This document shows positions 1 to 9,202 of a DNA stretch of 64,000 nt, in pieces (the stretch's first letter is position 1; every line of letters starts with the position of its first letter). Below the pieces are notes generated by a model. That model did no database searches and was not told the DNA's origin. It worked only from the letters and a program-made list of their open reading frames with translations. The stretch covers positions 7,712-71,711 of the forward strand of contig CAYJKL010000002.1 in the NCBI GenBank assembly GCA_964370755.1. The letters are read 5' to 3'. The DNA comes from an uncultured Muribaculaceae bacterium. GTDB taxonomy: Bacteria > Bacillota_I > Bacilli_A > RF39 > UBA660. The translations under genes and the position numbers were made by a program.

Positions 1-1481
1 TCTTTTTTAGCCATTTCTAAGCCATCAATATTATCTTTGTAATATTTTTTTAAAAGTTTAGTGTATTCATTATCTAAATATTCAGAAGTAAGCATTACAC
101 CTGATGCATTAGTTTCATGAATTATTTTTTCAAACTCAGCAAACATAGTTGCTTTTCTTATTACAAATTCAAAGTCTTTTAATCTGTCTTCTAAAAGTGT
201 TAATTTTTCTTCTTTGCTTTTAGCTAGTTTATGCATATATTTATTTAAGAGTAACTCATTTACTTGACTTGCTACTTCTAAAACAAATATAGATGGTTCA
301 TAATTTACAAATTCGTTGTTTTCTTTCGAATAATCAAAATGTACTGCATGACCAATTTCATGAGCAAGTGTAGATAAGTCTTTAAGAGTATTTTTATAAT
401 TTAAAAACACATAAGATTTATCACTATAAATGCTTGTTGTGTACGCAATTTCCTTTTTATTATTTTTAGGAAATGCATCTATTCTATTTTCACTAAATAT
501 TTTATTAGCTTTGGCACTATATTCTCCGCCAAAGTTTAAAAATGTTGCAAGTACTAAATCCCTTGCTTCTGCAAATGTATATTCTTTTTCATTTACATTA
601 GTTAGAGGTGCACTAGTATCATATAATTTTAAATCTTTTATTCCCATTAATTTACTTCTAAGATTCCAATATTTATCGAATGTAGGTAAATTAAGTTTTA
701 TGTTTTTAATTAACGAATCGTAAACACCGTATTCTAAATTATTTTTATCAAGTGTCATTTCTAAAGCATTTTTATATTTTTTAACACTACTAACTTTATT
801 ATTATGAGAAATAATCCCATCTAGTAAACTAGCACTTGTAGCTGATACTTTTTCTAAAGTTTCATACATTGTTACAAACGCTTTTTTTCTAATATCTCTA
901 TCATTATTAAGCATAAAAAGTTCGTAGTTATTAATTGTTAACTCTTCTCCATTTACTTCTCCAAAATTTGTTTCAACATGAAGTAAGTTAGTAAATGCAT
1001 CAACGTATCTTTTGCTACTATCTGAAAATATAGCTAAAATATTTTCGCATTCACTACTTAAAGTATGCCTTTTGTTTAAGTAAATGTTTTTAAGACTCTT
1101 TTCATATACTTTCAAATTTTCGTTTGAATCTATATAATTTTTAACGAATTTATAATCACTTTCTAATAGCTCAGGGATTAAAAATGAAGCAAGAGATGCA
1201 TATTTAACATATAAAGATACAACTTTAGCAAAATTTTTACTAGATGCTGAACTTGTTAAGTTTAAATCACTTAAAAATTTACTGTAAACATAAAGTTTTT
1301 CAAGATAAATACTTATTGTTTCATCTAACTTTAATACATCATAAAGTTTTTCGTCACTATCAAGTATATGATTTTTATATCTTTTGATTTTTTCCATATA
1401 CTTACTTACTCTAGCGCACTCCACTAAAAATTCTTTTTCGCTTTCAAAAAGCTTACTTAAATCTGCAACTTGTTTTTCCAT
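1..1481 (-). CDS. pepF: Oligoendopeptidase F (M3B family), N-terminal ~490 aa; C-terminus lies beyond the window start
   Basis: Manual minus-strand translation from the ATG at 1479-1481 (RBS GAAAGGGA) gives MEKQVADLSKLFESEKEF... with the zinc-binding LAHEIGHAVH motif. No stop codon occurs down to nt 1. Not in the ORF track because it is truncated by the window edge. Confidence 0.8.
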   Translation of the reverse strand, partial: MEKQVADLSKLFESEKEFLVECARVSKYMEKIKRYKNHILDSDEKLYDVLKLDETISIYLEKLYVYSKFLSDLNLTSSASSKNFAKVVSLYVKYASLASFLIPELLESDYKFVKNYIDSNENLKVYEKSLKNIYLNKRHTLSSECENILAIFSDSSKRYVDAFTNLLHVETNFGEVNGEELTINNYELFMLNNDRDIRKKAFVTMYETLEKVSATSASLLDGIISHNNKVSSVKKYKNALEMTLDKNNLEYGVYDSLIKNIKLNLPTFDKYWNLRSKLMGIKDLKLYDTSAPLTNVNEKEYTFAEARDLVLATFLNFGGEYSAKANKIFSENRIDAFPKNNKKEIAYTTSIYSDKSYVFLNYKNTLKDLSTLAHEIGHAVHFDYSKENNEFVNYEPSIFVLEVASQVNELLLNKYMHKLAKSKEEKLTLLEDRLKDFEFVIRKATMFAEFEKIIHETNASGVMLTSEYLDNEYTKLLKKYYKDNIDGLEMAKK

Positions 1482-1500: not shown

Positions 1501-1524
1501 GAAAGGTTCTTATAAAAAGAACCT
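1501..1524. other. 10-bp perfect inverted repeat (AAAGGTTCTT-ATAA-AAGAACCTTT) in the 36-bp dnaK-pepF gap
   Basis: Read directly from the sequence. On the plus strand a T-run follows; on the minus (dnaK) transcript no U-run follows. Confidence 0.5.
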
Positions 1525-1528
1525 TTTA

Positions 1529-3352
1529 TTATTTTTCTTCAAATTTAGCTTCTTCTACACCATCATCAGTCTTTACTTCTTCAGACGCAGCATCATCTTC
1601 ACTAGGAGCAGCGTTTTTTGCAGCTTCTTCATAAACTTTAGCAGCTAAATCCATAGCAAGTTTATTAAGTTCCTCAGCTTTAGTTTTAATTAATTCATAA
1701 TCTTCACCTTCTAAAGCTTTTTTAACTTCTTCTATTTTTTCTGTAGCACTTGTTTTTTCTTCTTCACTAATTTTACCTTCTAAATCTTCTAGAGCTTTTT
1801 CAGTAGTAAATACAGCACTATCAGCTTCGTTTCTTACTTCAGCATTTTTCTTTTTAGCTTCATCAGCTTCTTTATTAGCTTCAGCTTCTTTCATCATAGT
1901 TTCAATTTCTTCTTCACTTAAATTAGTTGAAGCTGTAATTGTAATTGATTGTTCTTTATTAGTTCCTAAATCTTTAGCTCTAACATTAACGATACCATTA
2001 GCATCAATATCAAATGTAACTTCGATTTGTGGTACTCCACGTCTAGCTGGTAAGATATTAGACAATTGGAAATTACCAAGTGTTTTATTATCAGCAGCCA
2101 TTGGTCTTTCACCTTGAAGTACATGTATGTCTACTGCTGGTTGATTATCAACTGCTGTTGAGAATACTTGACTTTTACTTGTTGGTATAGTTGTATTTCT
2201 AGGTATTAAAACTGTCATAACGTTACCAAGTGTTTCAAGTCCAAGTGATAAAGGAGTAACATCTAAAAGTACGATATCATCAACTTCACCAGTTAATACT
2301 CCACCTTGAATAGCAGCACCCATAGCAACTACTTCATCAGGGTTAACTCCTTTAGAAGGTTCTTGTCCAAGTTCTTTTTTAACAAGTTCTTGAACGTAAG
2401 GTATTCTCGTAGATCCACCTACTAAGATAACTTTATCAATATCTTTTTTGTCCATTTTAGCATCTTTAAGTGCTTGTTTAACAGGTTCTAAAGTTTTATC
2501 AAATAAATCTTTACATAAACTTTCAAACTTAGCTTTAGTTAAATTGATATCCATATGAACTGGAGCTCCATCAACTTGAGTTAAGAATGGTAAACTAATT
2601 TGTGTTGAAGTTGTACTAGATAACTCTTTTTTAGCTTTTTCAGCAGCATCTTTAATTCTTTGCATTGCCATAGCGTCTTTACTAAGGTCTGTTCCATGTT
2701 CTTTTTTGAATTCTTCTACTAAGTAATCACTTACTTTATTATCAAAGTCATCTCCACCAAGTTTGTTATTACCACTTGTTGATTTAACTTCTACAATTCC
2801 GTCTCCTAAATCTAGAATAGATACGTCAAACGTTCCTCCTCCTAAATCGTATACAAGAACTGTTTGATTTTCATTTTGCTTATCAAGTCCATATGCAAGC
2901 GCTGCTGCAGTTGGCTCATTTATAATTCTTTCAACTTCAAGACCAGCAATTTTACCAGCATCTTTTGTAGCTTGACGTTCAGCATCGTTAAAGTATGCTG
3001 GAACTGTAATTACAGCTTTAGTTACTTTTTCTCCTAAATAAGCCTCTGCATCTGCTTTAAGTTTTGAAAGTATTTTTGCACTAATTTCTTGTGGTGTATA
3101 TTTTTTACCATTAATTTCAACTTTGTAATCAGTACCCATATGTCTTTTAATTGAAGACACTGTTCCTTTAACATTTGTTACAGCTTGACGTTTAGCAGTT
3201 TCCCCTATTAAAACATCATCACCTTTAAATCCTACTACTGATGGAGTTGTTCTATTTCCTTCAGCGTTTGCGATAACTACTGTATCGCTACCTTCACGTA
3301 CACTAACACAAGAGTTAGTTGTACCTAAGTCTATTCCTATAATTTTACTCAT
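1529..3352 (-). CDS. dnaK: Molecular chaperone DnaK (Hsp70)
   Basis: 607 aa starting [18 protein letters not shown], the canonical Hsp70 N-terminus, followed by [10 protein letters not shown] and an EEVD-like acidic tail. Confidence 0.97.
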
Positions 3353-3854
3353 ATTTTATATTCCTCTTTCTTTCATTTTCATTTATTTTTGGCAACTTTT
3401 TTGCCCATGTAAGTAAGTTTTCTCTTGCCTTAATAATACTTAACCTAGTTTCTTCATCACTTGTGTTGTTATAATCAAAAGTTTTGCTTATTTTAGTATA
3501 TTTTTTATCACAACCTATTAATTCAACTTGTTTAAGTTCAAATCCTTCTGGTAAGTCACCAAAACTATAATCTTCTTCAAACATAATATATATTTCAGTC
3601 ATAAACTGCATTACTAGTACTATTTTAAACTCAGAATCACTACTAACTAATATAATGTTTGCTTCATTTTTATATCTTTCATATTCTTCTAAAGTTAATT
3701 TAATTGTATATGCCTTATTAAATCTATCATGACCTGCACAACTAAATTTAGTTTGATAACCACTTTTCCAAAGAACATCTAAAATTGGATAAATATTATC
3801 ATCTACCTCAATAGTATCATATATAGGTTCAAGATTATTTTTACTTACTATCAT
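3345..3854 (-). CDS. Hypothetical 169-aa protein inserted between grpE and dnaK; its stop overlaps the dnaK start by 8 nt and it begins 2 nt after the grpE stop
   Basis: Intact ORF on the same strand and frame-packed within the hrcA-grpE-dnaK operon. I recognise no family (contains FSCAGHDRF and a KR-rich C-terminus). Confidence 0.55.
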
Positions 3855-3856
3855 AG

Positions 3857-4372
3857 TTATTCACTTACTTTAACCATTGCTGGTCTAATTACTTTTCCGT
3901 TATAAATATATCCTTTTTGAAGAACATCTATAACTATACCTTCTTTTTTATCTTCTAACTTTTCAGTTAAAACAGCCTGCGCTATTTCTGGGTTAAATTC
4001 TTCATCTAAACAAATAATTTCAGTTACGCCTTGAGCATGAATTATACCAATTAATGCAGCATATATCATTTCAAATCCATCCATGAATTTTTTTGTATCA
4101 AGATTATCACTTTTAACACTTATAGCTCTTTCGAAGTCATCCACTATATCTAATAGTTTAACAATAAAACCTTCGGCTTCATATCTTCTAACTCTAGATA
4201 TTTCTTCTTCACTTCTTCTTTTTACATTTTGCATTTCTGCAAAGGTTCTTAAAAACTTATCGTTTAAAAGATTATATTCATTTTGAAGTTTTTCAAAATC
4301 AGCATTTTTGCTTTTTTTTGCTTTTACTTTTTCTTCTTTTTTAACTTCTTTTAAAGTTTCTTCTTTTTCCAA
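3857..4372 (-). CDS. grpE: Nucleotide exchange factor GrpE
   Basis: 171 aa with a K/E-rich N-terminus and a C-terminal GrpE core (FLRTFAEMQNVKRRSEEE...). Lies between hrcA and dnaK. Confidence 0.93.
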   Translation of the reverse strand: MEKEETLKEVKKEEKVKAKKSKNADFEKLQNEYNLLNDKFLRTFAEMQNVKRRSEEEISRVRRYEAEGFIVKLLDIVDDFERAISVKSDNLDTKKFMDGFEMIYAALIGIIHAQGVTEIICLDEEFNPEIAQAVLTEKLEDKKEGIVIDVLQKGYIYNGKVIRPAMVKVSE

Positions 4373-4375
4373 CTT

Positions 4376-5380
4376 TTAATCTTCCTTCCCGTCTAGATTA
4401 TCGTCTACATATTTTAGTAAACTTACTATTTTTTTATAATCCATTCTTTTAGGTCCAATAACTGCAATAGTTCCTTCTTCCCCACCTGCTTTATATTTTT
4501 TCTTAACAACAGTAAGATTTGGATCAAGTTTATTTTCTTCTCCGATGAATATTTTAATATCTTCAGTACTAGATTTATCTGTAAGTTTTTTTAGTTCACT
4601 TACATTTTCAAGTTTCGTAGATATTTCTTTTATTTCATCTATACTTTGGTATTCAGGTTGACTAATAATTTTAGACTTACCTGCCACATGAATACTTGAA
4701 TTACTATTAACAAAATCATTAAAAGCCTTATAAAATATTCCATATACTGCTTCATACTGATTTATTTCTTTCATAATGATCGGTTTTATTTCAAACTCTA
4801 GTCTTTCACTCACACTACTAATCGGAGTTCCTATTAAGAGTTTATTTATAATTTCACTAGCTTTTATAATTTCACTTATAAACGCACCTTCTGGTAAGCT
4901 GAACTTCTTATTTTCAACTATTCCTTTATCCGTACATACTAGCGCTACTATATGCGTCTCATCAAGCGCAATAATATCAACTTTTTGAAGTAAATTATCA
5001 CCAGCTGTTTTACCAAGTACTACACTTGCATAATTAGTTAAGTCGCTAATTATTTCCATACACTGAGTAATTGTATCACTTATAACTAGATCGTTGTTCG
5101 AAAATATTTTTTGTAATTTTAAAACATCTTTCCCAGTTAAATCTTCTGGTACCATTAGGTTTTCAACATAGTATCTGTAACCTCTTTCCGAAGGTATTCT
5201 ACCTGAAGAAATATGATTCTTTTCTATGTATCCTAAATTTTCTAAAACTTTCATTTCATTACGAATAGTCGCTGATGATAGTCCTAGTTTTGTACAAAGA
5301 GATTTACTTCCTACTGGTTTAACTGTCTTAATATATATCTCAACAATCTCCTTTAAAAGTTCTTCACTTCTTTTATCCAT
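4376..5380 (-). CDS. hrcA: Heat-inducible transcription repressor HrcA
   Basis: N-terminal winged helix (IVEIYIKTVKPVGSKSL) and typical length. The real start is probably the ATG at 5378-5380 (MDKRSEELL) with RBS AAAGGTGGTGA. The ORF-track N-terminal extension MLKVVKH lacks an RBS. Confidence 0.9.
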   Translation of the reverse strand: MDKRSEELLKEIVEIYIKTVKPVGSKSLCTKLGLSSATIRNEMKVLENLGYIEKNHISSGRIPSERGYRYYVENLMVPEDLTGKDVLKLQKIFSNNDLVISDTITQCMEIISDLTNYASVVLGKTAGDNLLQKVDIIALDETHIVALVCTDKGIVENKKFSLPEGAFISEIIKASEIINKLLIGTPISSVSERLEFEIKPIIMKEINQYEAVYGIFYKAFNDFVNSNSSIHVAGKSKIISQPEYQSIDEIKEISTKLENVSELKKLTDKSSTEDIKIFIGEENKLDPNLTVVKKKYKAGGEEGTIAVIGPKRMDYKKIVSLLKYVDDNLDGKED

Positions 5381-5394
5381 GTGTTTCACCACCT

Positions 5395-5422
5395 TTAGCA
5401 CTCAACACTTCTTAAGTGCTAA
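5395..5422. promoter_or_regulatory. CIRCE operator (TTAGCACTC-N9-TAAGTGCTAA), the HrcA binding site
   Basis: ttagcactcaacacttcttaagtgctaa is a near-perfect match to the CIRCE consensus TTAGCACTC-N9-GAGTGCTAA. It lies between the promoter and the hrcA RBS. Confidence 0.88.
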
Positions 5423-5426
5423 ATCT

Positions 5427-5455
5427 ATTATAATAGTATGCTTAGCACTTGTCAA
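5427..5455 (-). promoter_or_regulatory. Sigma-A type promoter for hrcA-grpE-orf169-dnaK (TTGACA-17nt-TATAAT)
   Basis: The minus strand reads TTGACAagtgctaagcatactatTATAAT, 4 nt upstream of CIRCE. The spacer contains an extra CIRCE half-site (agtgctaa). Confidence 0.7.
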
Positions 5456-5494
5456 TATATAACTGCTAATTTCACAAAACATTCACAAAAAAAA

Positions 5495-6385
5495 CTAACT
5501 CACATTAGTTTTCCTTATTTTTTCATAAAATGTTCTATTTAAAAATTCTTCGCTATTACATAAACTAGTTTCTTTAAAGTATATTTTAAATGCTTCTTCG
5601 TAACTTAAGTGCGGATTCCTATTAGTGAATTCTATGAAGTCGGTAAAATAAGAATATCCTGCTGCTCTTGAATTAAAATTTAGTAGTGACCATTCTGGAT
5701 TTATATCATAGTACTCTGATTTTATAAACTCTTTTACATAATCTGCTAAATCATAACTTTGCATTCTATGCTCAATGTCAATACGTTTTGATGTGCAAAT
5801 ATGCATTACCATATAATCTATCGCCATTGGTAAACCGTTACTTACACCAAACGATCCTGGGTTCACAAAGTATTTTCCATTTATTTTATCACTAAAAGCA
5901 CTGTGTGTGTGCCCTGTAATAAATACATCATTTGATAAACTTGTACTTATACTTTGTCTTAAAATATAGTCCTCTGGCCAAATACTTTGTTTACTACCGA
6001 GAGGATTATGATGATCTACTAAAAAAGATATATCATCAATTTTAAAACTTAACTGATCAGGTAATGATTTTATATAATCATAGTTATTACCATTTACTAT
6101 ATTTCTATAGGTGGTGTCTACTGACTTTGTATCTTTTAAATGTTGTAGTTTACCTTCTTCATACAAACTTATATATCTTTCCCTATTTCCAGCTACTACA
6201 TAAGTAGATAAGCCACTTTCCTTTAACCATTTTATTAAATTTATTACTTCATTATCTTGATATCCATCTGTAATCATATCTCCTGCAAAAATAAAATGTT
6301 CAATTCCTTCATTTAGTAATTTTTTTATTATTTTTTCAAGCATGAAATAATTAGAATGTATATCACTTAATACTGCTACTTTCAT
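5495..6385 (-). CDS. Calcineurin-like metallophosphoesterase with a ~100-aa C-terminal extension
   Basis: MKVAVLSDIHSN, GDMITDG, GNRE and GHTHS motifs match the D-x-H / GD / GNH[DE] / GH signature. The C-terminal 100 aa is unassigned. Confidence 0.8.
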   Translation of the reverse strand: MKVAVLSDIHSNYFMLEKIIKKLLNEGIEHFIFAGDMITDGYQDNEVINLIKWLKESGLSTYVVAGNRERYISLYEEGKLQHLKDTKSVDTTYRNIVNGNNYDYIKSLPDQLSFKIDDISFLVDHHNPLGSKQSIWPEDYILRQSISTSLSNDVFITGHTHSAFSDKINGKYFVNPGSFGVSNGLPMAIDYMVMHICTSKRIDIEHRMQSYDLADYVKEFIKSEYYDINPEWSLLNFNSRAAGYSYFTDFIEFTNRNPHLSYEEAFKIYFKETSLCNSEEFLNRTFYEKIRKTNVS

Positions 6386-6412
6386 TTGATACTCCCCGTA
6401 ATATTATACTAT

Positions 6413-9202
6413 TTACAGAACTAATTGTAAATTATTTTTTTCACTTGCAATTAAGTTTTTAAACTCTTCTACTGAATAATAATATTTATCTTTGTATTTA
6501 ACACAATTAGTAAACTTAAAATCTTCTGGCCAAACAAACTCACTTAAGCTACTGAGCATATTTATATCAAGTATTCCATCTATAAACTTTGGCATTCTTT
6601 TATTATTACCATGTTCTAGTGAACTTAAAATTAAGTCTCCCCATACTTCGTTAGGCATTTTGAAATTTTCTATATCTATACATCTTTTCATATATAGCCC
6701 ACCTTTAAATCTAGAAGACACTTCTAAATTTGATGCACTTTTTAAACTACTTAAATAACATATTCCAGTAAAATCATCAGGTATTTTTAAATATTTTGTT
6801 TCTGTTAGACTACTTAGATCTAAATAGTAACATATTCCACTAGGTAATGGAATGTTATCTATATTTTTGATATTTGTTAAAAATAAACTTCCATTTAGTT
6901 TTTCAGGTAACGAGTTATCTTCTAAGTATTCAACACTATTTAAATACAAAGAACCGTTTATATCAATAGGAAGGTTATAATACTTAAGAGTCTTTATTTT
7001 ATTTAATTTTAAATATCCACCTAATTTCTGTGGTAATGTTATATTATTTATAACTTTAACATTTTCAAGATTTATGTATCCTTTGAAACTTTTGTGAAAT
7101 GTAAAATCATTAAGTTCTTCTAAATCAGGAAAACTATAAAAATAATTAGTTCCAATTGGGACTGTTATATTACTTAAACTTTTGATACCTGATATTTTGA
7201 TACCGCCATGCACTTCTTTTGTTAATGTTCCTTTTTCTAAGTTTTGTGGATATTCGATTCTTAATTCTTGTTCTATTATTTCTGGTAAAATTACGCCTTC
7301 AAAATCGTTTGGATAAGTTATACTAAGCGAACCTCTTAGTATTTTAGGAAATACAATATTTTTTAAATCTACTTTATTATTAAATGTAATATTACCTTTA
7401 TAATCTTCGGGAAACACTAGTTTATTATCGTATTTAATTTTAGAAAAATATAAATCCCTTGTTTCAGTTGGTAATGGAAAATCTTTTAAATTATTTTCAT
7501 CTTTAAATATCATTTCGTTTTCTACGTATTTTGGTAACTCAAAAATGCTCATATCTGATATATTTTTAAATTCAAGGGCACTTTCCATAGCGTAATTAAG
7601 TTTTATTTTCTCTTTGCAACTAACATTATCAAAAGTGAAATTTATATCATTATATATAGAAAGGTCTAGTTCACTTTCGAAGTTACAGTTTTTAAACTCA
7701 ACACTATTATAATCTCTTAGTATTTCAATTTCATTTTCTATTTTTGCGCCAATTAATATTAATTTTCCACTGATCTCTTCAGGCAGAAGAAAGTCTTTAA
7801 ATGACTTATTTAAATTTAATGTTAAATCTCCTACTATTACTTTTGGAAACGTTACTGTTTTATAGTCAACATTTTCATCGTATATTAAGTTTCCATGAAA
7901 GTAATATGGTGCAATAAATCCAGCTGATACTTTAATAGGCCATCCGTATGTTTTGAAAAATTTTATTTTTTTACCACTTAAAAGTTCTTCTTCATTAAAA
8001 GTTATTTCATCTTCTGTACATGATAACGCATATGCTAAATCTTTTTTAGAGTCTCTATCCTTAATAATTTCATAAACTCTTTCATCTGGTTTTCCATTTA
8101 TAAACTTTAGTTTTCTTCTGACTTCGTGCAGAAACCGAATCTCTTCTTTATCTAAGTCTTCTTTATTTAAATGTTTTTCATATATTTTATCAATTATACT
8201 TTTATCATGAAAATACATAGAATATTCACTGTAATTTTTAAAATCTCTTAATTTAAAATTTAAAGTATCTAAGAATTCTTCTGCTACTTCTTGGTTTCCT
8301 GTTGTACCTCTAACTTCAACAATGCAGTTATTTACTACTCTTATTGAAATTTTTGGAAGACTAAAATATTTTTTTACATCTTTAGCATAATATACATAGA
8401 ACTGACCTTCTTTTAAGATGTTTGCTGCCATATTTTTATTAAGAACACACCAGTTAGTTCCTTTACCTTCTAAATCTTGCATTAAAAAATCTACATCATC
8501 TGCACCTTCATATAACATCCATTTTCCATTCGGTTTATAGACGTTTCTTTCATATAAATCAAAACTTCTATGATACATTATGTTTTTATAACAAAATTCA
8601 TATAACTTTCTAAAACTACCATTTTGAAGAAGTAATAAAGCTTCTGTATCATTTCCGGTAAATTTTCCTTCCGCATATTCTTGCATTAAATTAATTACGG
8701 CTTTGATTACGTCCCTATCAAACTCAACAAAAGGATTCGTGGTTTTCGTTGTTCTTCTTGTAAATTTATTATTTTTTCCATCATATGAGCCAATTGATGT
8801 TATACCTACAAATGCCCAGTACAATAGCCAATCTGGATATTTTTGCATTTCTGTACTTAAGAAAAAATCTATAAACTTTCTTAATGATTCTTCTTGATCC
8901 ATTATTACGTTAATTCTGTCTTGTAATCTTTCAAAATAACAATATTCGTCTGAGTCTCCTCTAGCAAGAAGTAGTTTTTCTCTTTTTTTAAAGTATTCTT
9001 CAGGAATATCTCTCATTACATATCTATCAATTAGTAAGTTTTTGATTTTTTCTTTTCTATCAGTTTCAATAGTTTTACTAACAACTCTTTGTAATTTTTC
9101 TAAATATTTCCTTATTTTTTCTGGTGGAGTTAATGATAAATTCCCATTATAAAGCAAGTATAAATCTTTATAAATAATATTTAAAAATTCGTATCCGTTC
9201 AT
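6413..9202 (-). CDS. Large (929 aa) cytoplasmic protein: unknown N-terminal ~430-aa domain plus ~500 aa of ~21-23-aa LRR-like repeats (xLPxxIxGxLxLxx...)
   Basis: No signal peptide. Repeats such as ITLPQKLGGYLKLNKIKTLKYYNLPIDINGSLYLNSVEYLEDNSLPEKLNGSLFLTNIKNI are visible by eye. It has its own promoter-like TTTACT-17-TAATAT after the upstream terminator and is co-directional with the phosphoesterase. Confidence 0.7.
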   Translation of the reverse strand: MNGYEFLNIIYKDLYLLYNGNLSLTPPEKIRKYLEKLQRVVSKTIETDRKEKIKNLLIDRYVMRDIPEEYFKKREKLLLARGDSDEYCYFERLQDRINVIMDQEESLRKFIDFFLSTEMQKYPDWLLYWAFVGITSIGSYDGKNNKFTRRTTKTTNPFVEFDRDVIKAVINLMQEYAEGKFTGNDTEALLLLQNGSFRKLYEFCYKNIMYHRSFDLYERNVYKPNGKWMLYEGADDVDFLMQDLEGKGTNWCVLNKNMAANILKEGQFYVYYAKDVKKYFSLPKISIRVVNNCIVEVRGTTGNQEVAEEFLDTLNFKLRDFKNYSEYSMYFHDKSIIDKIYEKHLNKEDLDKEEIRFLHEVRRKLKFINGKPDERVYEIIKDRDSKKDLAYALSCTEDEITFNEEELLSGKKIKFFKTYGWPIKVSAGFIAPYYFHGNLIYDENVDYKTVTFPKVIVGDLTLNLNKSFKDFLLPEEISGKLILIGAKIENEIEILRDYNSVEFKNCNFESELDLSIYNDINFTFDNVSCKEKIKLNYAMESALEFKNISDMSIFELPKYVENEMIFKDENNLKDFPLPTETRDLYFSKIKYDNKLVFPEDYKGNITFNNKVDLKNIVFPKILRGSLSITYPNDFEGVILPEIIEQELRIEYPQNLEKGTLTKEVHGGIKISGIKSLSNITVPIGTNYFYSFPDLEELNDFTFHKSFKGYINLENVKVINNITLPQKLGGYLKLNKIKTLKYYNLPIDINGSLYLNSVEYLEDNSLPEKLNGSLFLTNIKNIDNIPLPSGICYYLDLSSLTETKYLKIPDDFTGICYLSSLKSASNLEVSSRFKGGLYMKRCIDIENFKMPNEVWGDLILSSLEHGNNKRMPKFIDGILDINMLSSLSEFVWPEDFKFTNCVKYKDKYYYSVEEFKNLIASEKNNLQLVL

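Follow-up and report, generated by a model that had tools for sequence, protein, structure and literature searches.

What is an additional gene doing inside the hrcA-grpE-dnaK core, one of the most stereotyped operons in Firmicutes? The question is raised by a 64,000-nucleotide stretch of contig CAYJKL010000002.1 from an uncultured bacterium (the whole of which is referred to here as the window), where an open reading frame (ORF) of 169 amino acids, ORF169 (hereafter X), lies between grpE and dnaK. We found no description of a gene in this position in the searchable literature. X is a genuine protein-coding gene, and we conclude that it is a lineage-specific accessory gene of the dnaK operon, of a kind already known, that comes from an undescribed domain family. 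As to its role, we tentatively favor that of an accessory factor of the Hsp70 system over the alternatives weighed below.

X is an intact frame of 169 codons on the minus strand, with its ATG at 3854 and its stop codon ending at 3345. The grpE stop codon (TAA, 3859-3857) is followed by two nucleotides (CT) and then by the ATG of X, and the last 8 nt of X (ATGAGTAA) overlap the dnaK start at 3352 and hold its start codon, which confirms both the 2-nt gap and the 8-nt overlap described in the original prediction. The gene order on the minus strand is hrcA-grpE-X-dnaK-pepF, with hrcA directly upstream of grpE, and no second copy of X was found within the window. From the base composition (26% guanine plus cytosine, GC), we estimate the chance of such an open frame at about 1e-7 per start.

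The same hrcA-grpE-X-dnaK order is present in five other assemblies, L001, L009, L011, L036, and L039, whose HrcA proteins are respectively 98, 49, 79, 56, and 64% identical to that of the window. Related genomes thus carry the same insertion, which was found, with the window included, in six of the 12 long-contig contexts sampled (one of the 12, L040, was sampled twice, as L038 and then with longer flanks). X is intact in all five relatives (138-169 aa) and has tight junctions in all; its length stays comparable across the six genomes, even where identity falls to about 30%. For the window and L001, the pair used for all rate comparisons below, the ratio of nonsynonymous to synonymous substitution rates (dN/dS) of X is 0.42 by the Nei-Gojobori method (NG86), compared with 0.03-0.12 for hrcA, grpE, and dnaK. 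An ORF absent or frameshifted in close relatives and a dN/dS near 1 had been named in advance as signs against the gene, and neither was seen. The GC content and skew of X match those of its flanks. Its identity tracks host divergence, a pattern that fits one old insertion followed by vertical descent; a recent horizontal insertion was rejected on these two grounds, composition and identity. Within a clade of uncultured low-GC Bacilli, X has thus long resided at the dnaK locus and been passed on vertically.

The absence of any recognizable family, as first described, holds for curated libraries and fails for sequence space at large. Single-sequence searches of Pfam, NCBIfam, and PDB with X gave no match, and no curated Pfam, NCBIfam, or PADLOC model covers it. 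A word-indexed homology search recovered one relative only, and scans with a two-sequence alignment (of genome contigs and, in a first metagenome scan, of metagenomes) returned the known relative only, or nothing. The family appeared with an exhaustive HMMER search of 1.84 billion cluster representatives, which yielded 201 proteins at E<=1e-3, i.e., about 200 clusters at 50% identity. In an alignment of 87 sequences, L28, Y33, F92, and W150 are invariant or nearly so, as are D18, G32, T35, C39, G41, H42, Y89, P102, and F105. With the family alignment, AlphaFold2 gave a confident single-domain alpha/beta model with a mean predicted local distance difference test score (pLDDT) of 91.9.

X is also embedded in an operon of the HrcA/CIRCE type (CIRCE, controlling inverted repeat of chaperone expression) and tightly coupled within it, as the original prediction had it. 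Two CIRCE-like repeats bracket the operon promoter, one over the -35 box and the other after the -10 box (Table 1), and nothing resembling a terminator was found from hrcA through to the dnaK stop. The repeats are non-canonical (arms of 8-9 bp and spacers of 10-12 nt), and because of this spacing a search for the strict 9-N9-9 element (TTAGCACTC-N9-GAGTGCTAA) with up to 3 mismatches gave no match upstream of hrcA. The two repeats are conserved in four relatives (repeat regions L001 8401-8475, L011 4390-4463, L039 3389-3462, and L040 569-596), and the upstream one is nearly identical across the four. Given hrcA itself, the repeats, the promoter, and the lack of a terminator, X is predicted to belong to the HrcA/CIRCE heat-shock regulon and would be co-transcribed with hrcA, grpE, and dnaK. 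An internal dnaK promoter inside X was considered and rejected, as promoter-like matches there are no commoner than in shuffled sequence.

Table 1. Features of X and its operon in the window (positions are those of the window; X segments are compared with the L001 ortholog).
Feature	Position	Strand	Remarks
ORF169 (X)	3345..3854	minus	stand-alone member of an undescribed domain family
X residues 1-92			dN/dS 0.27
X residues 93-146, hypervariable	3417..3578	minus	dN/dS 0.83; 37% identity to the L001 ortholog
X residues 147-169			dN/dS 0.25
TYW3/Taw3-like motif element, X residues 12-49	3708..3821	minus	helix, then strand, then SCAGH
dnaK Shine-Dalgarno sequence AAGAGGAA	3361..3368	minus	encoded in the basic C-terminal tail of X (ERKRNIKYE), 8 nt upstream of the dnaK ATG
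Sigma-70-type operon promoter	5427..5455	minus	TTGACA-17-TATAAT, 12/12 matches
CIRCE-like inverted repeat 1	5442..5469		TTAGCAGT-N12-AGTGCTAA; overlaps the -35 box
CIRCE-like inverted repeat 2	5395..5422		TTAGCACTT-N10-GAGTGCTAA (coding strand); between the -10 box and the hrcA Shine-Dalgarno sequence
hrcA	4376..5380	minus	334 aa from the ATG at 5380; the ORF listing extends the start to a GTG at 5401
grpE	3857..4372	minus	171 aa; 87% identical to the Pfam-GrpE gene of L001
dnaK	1529..3352	minus	607 aa
pepF (M3 oligoendopeptidase F)	1..1481	minus	start at 1481; truncated at the left window edge

The gene dnaK has its own strong Shine-Dalgarno (SD) sequence inside the 3' end of X. No convincing SD precedes X in the window, in L001, or in L009, and L011 has a strong one after a 22-nt spacer. 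Because no good SD precedes it in the window, X probably depends on re-initiation after grpE for its translation. This makes the "stoichiometric" expression with the chaperones that had been proposed doubtful, and the strong SD of dnaK does not support it either.

X evolves much faster than the genes around it. The window and L001 share 97.9% identity in HrcA (against the Pfam-HrcA gene of L001), 95.2% in DnaK, and 87% in GrpE, compared with 62% in X; the dN of X is 0.256 vs. 0.009-0.059 for its neighbors, or 4-28 times higher. The change is concentrated in residues 93-146 (Table 1), which in the model form a loop, a beta-hairpin, and the start of a long C-terminal helix. The basic C-terminal tail, by comparison, is conserved in the subclade; it has low pLDDT and is predicted to be disordered, and its conservation in part reflects constraint at the DNA level, because the tail also encodes the dnaK SD and the dnaK start codon. 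These substitution patterns indicate that X is under purifying selection overall and carries a hypervariable face.

The conserved part of X contains a recognizable motif, D..T..SCxGH (family consensus TxxSCxGH for its second half), with near-invariant D18, T35, C39, G41, and H42. It resembles the catalytic centre of TYW3/Taw3 (PF02676, UPF0130), the class IX S-adenosylmethionine (SAM)-dependent N4-methyltransferases of tRNA wybutosine (yW) in archaea and eukaryotes. The hallmarks of TYW3 are an (S/T)xSSCxGR motif, an invariant N-terminal Asp, and an invariant His, which cluster as a catalytic centre in a fold that consists of an N-terminal extension, a RAGNYA domain, and an SHS2 domain (Currie et al., PMC5311493). 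For comparison, we built two alignments of TYW3 N-terminal halves, to which the X family aligned in hhalign with probabilities of 94 and 92% over 34-38 columns; nothing aligned beyond the motif (38 columns). Weak matches point the same way: nine of the 87 relatives match Pfam TYW3 (E from 6e-4 up to the reporting limit of 0.01), one or two match Taw3-type models of NCBIfam, and the best PDB sequence match of the family profile is the Taw3 homologue PH1069, over the segment EVDEDI...TTSSCSGR.

X shares with TYW3 the Asp, an amphipathic helix (D-x-x-I-x-x-x-x-x-[LI]-N), and a strand ending in T-x-x-S-C-x-G. The invariant Asp (Asp25 of SsTaw3) corresponds to D18 of X, which is at least 90% conserved and aligned in both hhalign runs. 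The Thr, Cys, and Gly of the TYW3 signature are kept as well, whereas its essential Arg is replaced by a nearly invariant His, and the His73 of TYW3 (at the end of strand 3, and required for SAM binding) has no counterpart, in that no downstream His is conserved in the 87-sequence alignment and the hhalign alignment ends before that position. X proteins are also shorter (140-190 aa vs. about 200 aa for TYW3), and they are bacterial and phage-borne instead of archaeal and eukaryotic. At the level of structure, a Foldseek search of PDB with the X model gave nothing significant (best E 0.088), and Taw3 structures are absent from its top 50 matches. Chains of type III secretion chaperones and YbjN-like proteins (SycE, SycN-YscB, ExsC, SchA, and YbjN, with an alpha-beta3-alpha-beta2-alpha fold) recur among the top matches, all of them weak (E 0.1-0.7, probability <=0.35, template modelling (TM) score <=0.35). 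From these alignments, we regard the Asp18/Thr35/Cys39/Gly41/His42 cluster as homologous, as a motif, to the TYW3/Taw3 catalytic centre, while X itself is not a demonstrated member of TYW3/Taw3. X may possess a catalytic activity.

In L040, whose host is nested among other hosts that carry X in the slot and is closest to that of L009, the grpE-dnaK slot (2277-2558) holds an unrelated 93-aa ORF, and X is found farther along this locus, 2.6 kb past dnaJ on the downstream side. The possibility that the 93-aa ORF is a degenerate X was rejected (hmmsearch E 0.12); it looks mostly helical and has no Pfam match. The grpE-dnaK slot therefore appears to accept different small genes. In a further group (P0228, more than 24 contigs), X lies beside the gene of a 500-aa J-domain protein and in divergent orientation to it, in an island between secA and prfB. 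This island (L006 2816-6480; also in L007 and L008) encodes the 500-aa protein, in which the N-terminal J domain is the only one recognized, together with ORFs of 169 and 67 aa without known function. Elsewhere, family members occur as smc-X-holA, alongside a resolvase and a Schlafen-type ATPase in another island, and in one unremarkable context, and none of 24 metagenome loci of the family has grpE or dnaK nearby.

In several of these metagenome loci, a core of about 115 residues of the X domain is embedded in proteins of 650-1476 aa; the core lacks the variable insert that otherwise separates the motif from the "YIxF" strand. The large protein in L021 combines the X domain with an N-terminal transglutaminase-like region and a C-terminal GNAT domain, and the one in L027 combines it with an HExxH (zincin-type) motif. 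A gene adjoining such a large protein matches phage RNA-polymerase beta-subunit PHROGs (E 5e-24), and there is a weak PhageMetallopep match in an adjoining gene. The contigs concerned (57-250 kb) are jumbo-phage-like and carry tandem paralogous large proteins with variable modules (X domain, GNAT plus P-loop kinase, transglutaminase-like, HExxH); the large proteins beside the phage RNA-polymerase-beta-like gene are at L020 130-10381, L021 2994-7424, and L027 4401-7565. Among viral models, the structural neighbors of X are uncharacterized jumbo-phage proteins such as Gp650 of Bacillus phage G (E 5.7e-3, TM 0.48), and the N-terminal motif alone is matched in hypothetical Bacillus-phage proteins in PHROG and phage-record searches. 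Searches of phage records, plasmids, and PADLOC gave no functional annotation for X: no plasmid copies of the family were found, a viral-contig scan with the alignment of the operon subclade returned no relatives, and the PADLOC defence profiles had no match to X of the window and only scattered single weak matches among the 87 relatives.

As one module in very large multi-domain proteins, the X domain recalls the polyvalent proteins of phages and conjugative elements (Iyer et al., 2017, PMC5512222). X differs from that set in that neither an LPD nor any other domain described there matches it in Pfam, and X of the window is a stand-alone chromosomal gene. The survey of polyvalent proteins mentions neither TYW3 nor DnaK (Iyer et al., PMC5512222), and we found nothing relevant on TYW3-like domains in polyvalent proteins in the searchable literature.

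The reading that we favor, tentatively and at somewhat less than an even chance, is that X serves the Hsp70 system as an accessory factor, with a conserved pocket that binds a small ligand or a metal or catalyses a modification and a variable face that selects a partner or client specific to the lineage. It is suggested by the deep retention of X at the dnaK locus, by its relocation within that locus in L040, and by the separate linkage of the P0228 group to a J-domain gene. X would share the transcript that hrcA, grpE, and dnaK receive from the heat-shock promoter and would probably be translated by re-initiation after grpE, and dnaK would then start from its own SD, embedded in the disordered basic tail of X. 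Being co-regulated with GrpE and DnaK, X would become available as chaperone demand rises. For a putative link of X to DnaK, physical or functional, there is a precedent in DafA of Thermus thermophilus, a DnaK-DnaJ assembly factor; this lineage-specific small protein, encoded in the dnaK operon, acts on the chaperone and is described as forming a DnaK3-DnaJ3-DafA3 complex (PMC3727329). Compared with DafA by description only, X is likewise small, lineage-restricted, and encoded inside the dnaK operon, and it differs in its TYW3-like motif, its phage relatives, and the putative nature of its interaction with DnaK.

Several observations weigh against an Hsp70-linked role. X has no J-domain, GrpE, tetratricopeptide repeat (TPR), or other co-chaperone signature in Pfam or NCBIfam. 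Specifically, it has no DnaJ match in Pfam and no HPD tripeptide in its sequence, which speaks against a J-domain protein, and neither a match to the GrpE fold (PF01025) in Pfam or NCBIfam nor a significant sequence or fold match in PDB, which speaks against a nucleotide exchange factor. Foldseek likewise gave no significant structural match to any chaperone or co-chaperone. The divergence of X from its L001 ortholog, set against that of DnaK and GrpE, is unusual for an obligate partner. Many members of the family occupy unrelated sites, namely those at smc-holA and in the resolvase/Schlafen island, other locations, and the 24 metagenome loci; the domain is a module of large jumbo-phage-like proteins; and the unrelated 93-aa ORF of L040 indicates that the slot tolerates arbitrary cargo. 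The co-chaperone or adaptor originally proposed thus draws support from the recurrent linkage to dnaK, dnaJ, and a J-domain gene, and loses it to the missing signatures, the fast evolution, and the location of most members outside chaperone loci.

A different explanation, possible in our view although open to more doubt, is that X is a hitch-hiking accessory or conflict gene, i.e., a small phage-related or phage-directed effector with a function independent of DnaK, such as one in conflict between phage and host. It would be an old arrival at a junction that tolerates insertions, in an operon that is strongly expressed and inducible by stress and that gives it expression and nothing else, and it would have stayed there because an excision that spares both grpE and dnaK is hard. 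The fast evolution of X is consistent with this, in particular the near-neutral or diversifying segment of residues 93-146, as are the homologous domains inside the multi-domain proteins beside phage RNA-polymerase-beta-like genes, with peptidase-like and GNAT modules in the same polypeptide or the same loci. The jumbo-phage structural neighbors such as Gp650, the PHROG matches, and the motif matches in Bacillus phages add to these, and other members are wedged between housekeeping genes or lie in resolvase/Schlafen islands. Moreover, both junctions of the operon take up other genes, an unrelated ORF in the grpE-dnaK slot of L040 and variable cargo (pepF or tldD/pmbA) between dnaK and dnaJ. 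However, X matches no defence family in PADLOC, has no plasmid copies, and in the operon subclade has no relatives on viral contigs; its composition, like that of the flanks, gives no sign of recent transfer; and its retention in the dnaK locus across deep divergence, even when displaced as in L040, suggests more than accidental parking, as does the linkage of a separate group to a J-domain gene.

It is also conceivable, although we consider it unlikely, that X is a divergent bacterial enzyme of the TYW3/Taw3 type, a SAM-dependent methyltransferase or related modifier of RNA or protein that acts on tRNA, rRNA, or a translation component. Its place in the dnaK operon would then have the same reason as that of the PrmA-, RsmE-, and MtaB-type enzymes in Bacillus subtilis, where hrcA-grpE-dnaK-dnaJ are co-transcribed with yqeT (PrmA-like), yqeU, and yqeV (MtaB) in a heptacistronic operon with three enzymes that modify the translation machinery (PMC2952846). 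X resembles these three genes, which encode methyltransferases of the translation apparatus, as an extra gene of non-chaperone type in a dnaK operon. The B. subtilis genes, though, follow dnaJ, are widely conserved and slow-evolving, and have known folds, whereas X, placed between grpE and dnaK, is fast-evolving and its family has no name. The motif homology, with the Asp, Thr, Cys, and Gly of the catalytic centre retained, argues for such an enzyme, and in L001 a UPF0004/radical-SAM gene, with a Pfam architecture common to MiaB/MtaB-type methylthiotransferases, lies downstream of dnaJ. Against it stand the change of Arg to His, the missing counterpart of His73, the small number of aligned columns (34-38) with X of the window below every Pfam and NCBIfam threshold, and the lack of Taw3 structures among the leading Foldseek matches. 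Besides, housekeeping RNA-modification enzymes seldom fall to 62% identity while DnaK stays at 95%.

More speculative, and improbable as a whole, is an extension of the Hsp70-linked reading in which the X domain would be a new module of the Hsp70 system on both the phage and the host side. It would act as a partner of DnaK, GrpE, and DnaJ, co-expressed with them upon heat shock, in these Bacilli and recruit or manipulate host DnaK in jumbo phages, its TYW3-like Asp/Cys/His pocket would be ligand-binding or modifying, and the family would represent relatives of the TYW3 catalytic core in bacteria and phages. This extension assumes, by analogy with the polyvalent-protein-like architecture, that the jumbo-phage proteins carrying the domain are delivered with the virion. 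Finally, a spurious or decaying ORF, left between grpE and dnaK as a remnant without function, is effectively excluded as an explanation of X, since the missing curated family, the weak or absent SD in the window, and the elevated dN are outweighed by a frame that is intact and similarly long in six genomes, at identities as low as about 30%, a dN/dS below 1, motifs kept across at least 87 diverse homologues, and a confident fold prediction.

What follows depends on which reading holds. If X works with DnaK, it would represent a new class of Hsp70 accessory protein and hint at how jumbo phages engage host chaperones; if it is a TYW3-related enzyme, the range of a methyltransferase class known mainly from archaea and eukaryotes would come to include bacteria and phages. 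Should X be no more than a hitch-hiker, this clade would still have two junctions, grpE-dnaK and dnaK-dnaJ, that serve as cargo slots in a stress operon, and a family so far without a name, with some 200 or more sequence clusters, gains a defined domain, motifs, and a confident model.

The second of these junctions also accounts for dnaJ, which the original prediction reported as not downstream. This was an artefact of the window edge: pepF runs off the window (the fragment is 84% identical to PepF of L001), and in the relatives L001, L009, and L036 the order is dnaK-pepF-dnaJ, so that dnaJ is expected just beyond the edge, after pepF. The dnaK-dnaJ junction carries inserted cargo in the clade, mostly pepF, with a tldD/pmbA pair in one genome and an extra Bro-N gene in L009 (junctions at L001 12376-15257, L039 7360-10003, and window 1-1481 on the minus strand); dnaJ is set apart from dnaK by this cargo, at a distance of 1.8-2.7 kb. 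In the window, a perfect hairpin with an 11-bp stem lies at 1501..1527, between the dnaK stop and the pepF SD. Because the coding strand has no T-run there (no U-run in the transcript), it may be an mRNA-processing or stabilizing element rather than a terminator.

A few further observations concern the neighborhood and the relatives used for comparison. The region just upstream of hrcA (window 5495-9202, minus strand; L001 5811-8342) differs between the two otherwise near-identical genomes, with a calcineurin-like phosphoesterase (296 aa) and a 929-aa repeat-rich protein without a Pfam match in the window, and ORFs of 539, 131, and 116 aa in L001. In L011, dnaK is split (6492-7768), with residues 1-141 and 201-464 matching separately and only the downstream fragment called as a gene, which suggests an assembly error or a disrupted gene. 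The metagenome-assembled genome of L001/L002 (GCA_964369155.1, contig CAYJEI010000002.1) carries the title "uncultured Muribaculaceae bacterium," which would place it in Bacteroidota. Its HrcA/CIRCE operon shares 95-98% identity with that of the window and related proteins are named "Bacilli bacterium," and its taxonomic label looks wrong.

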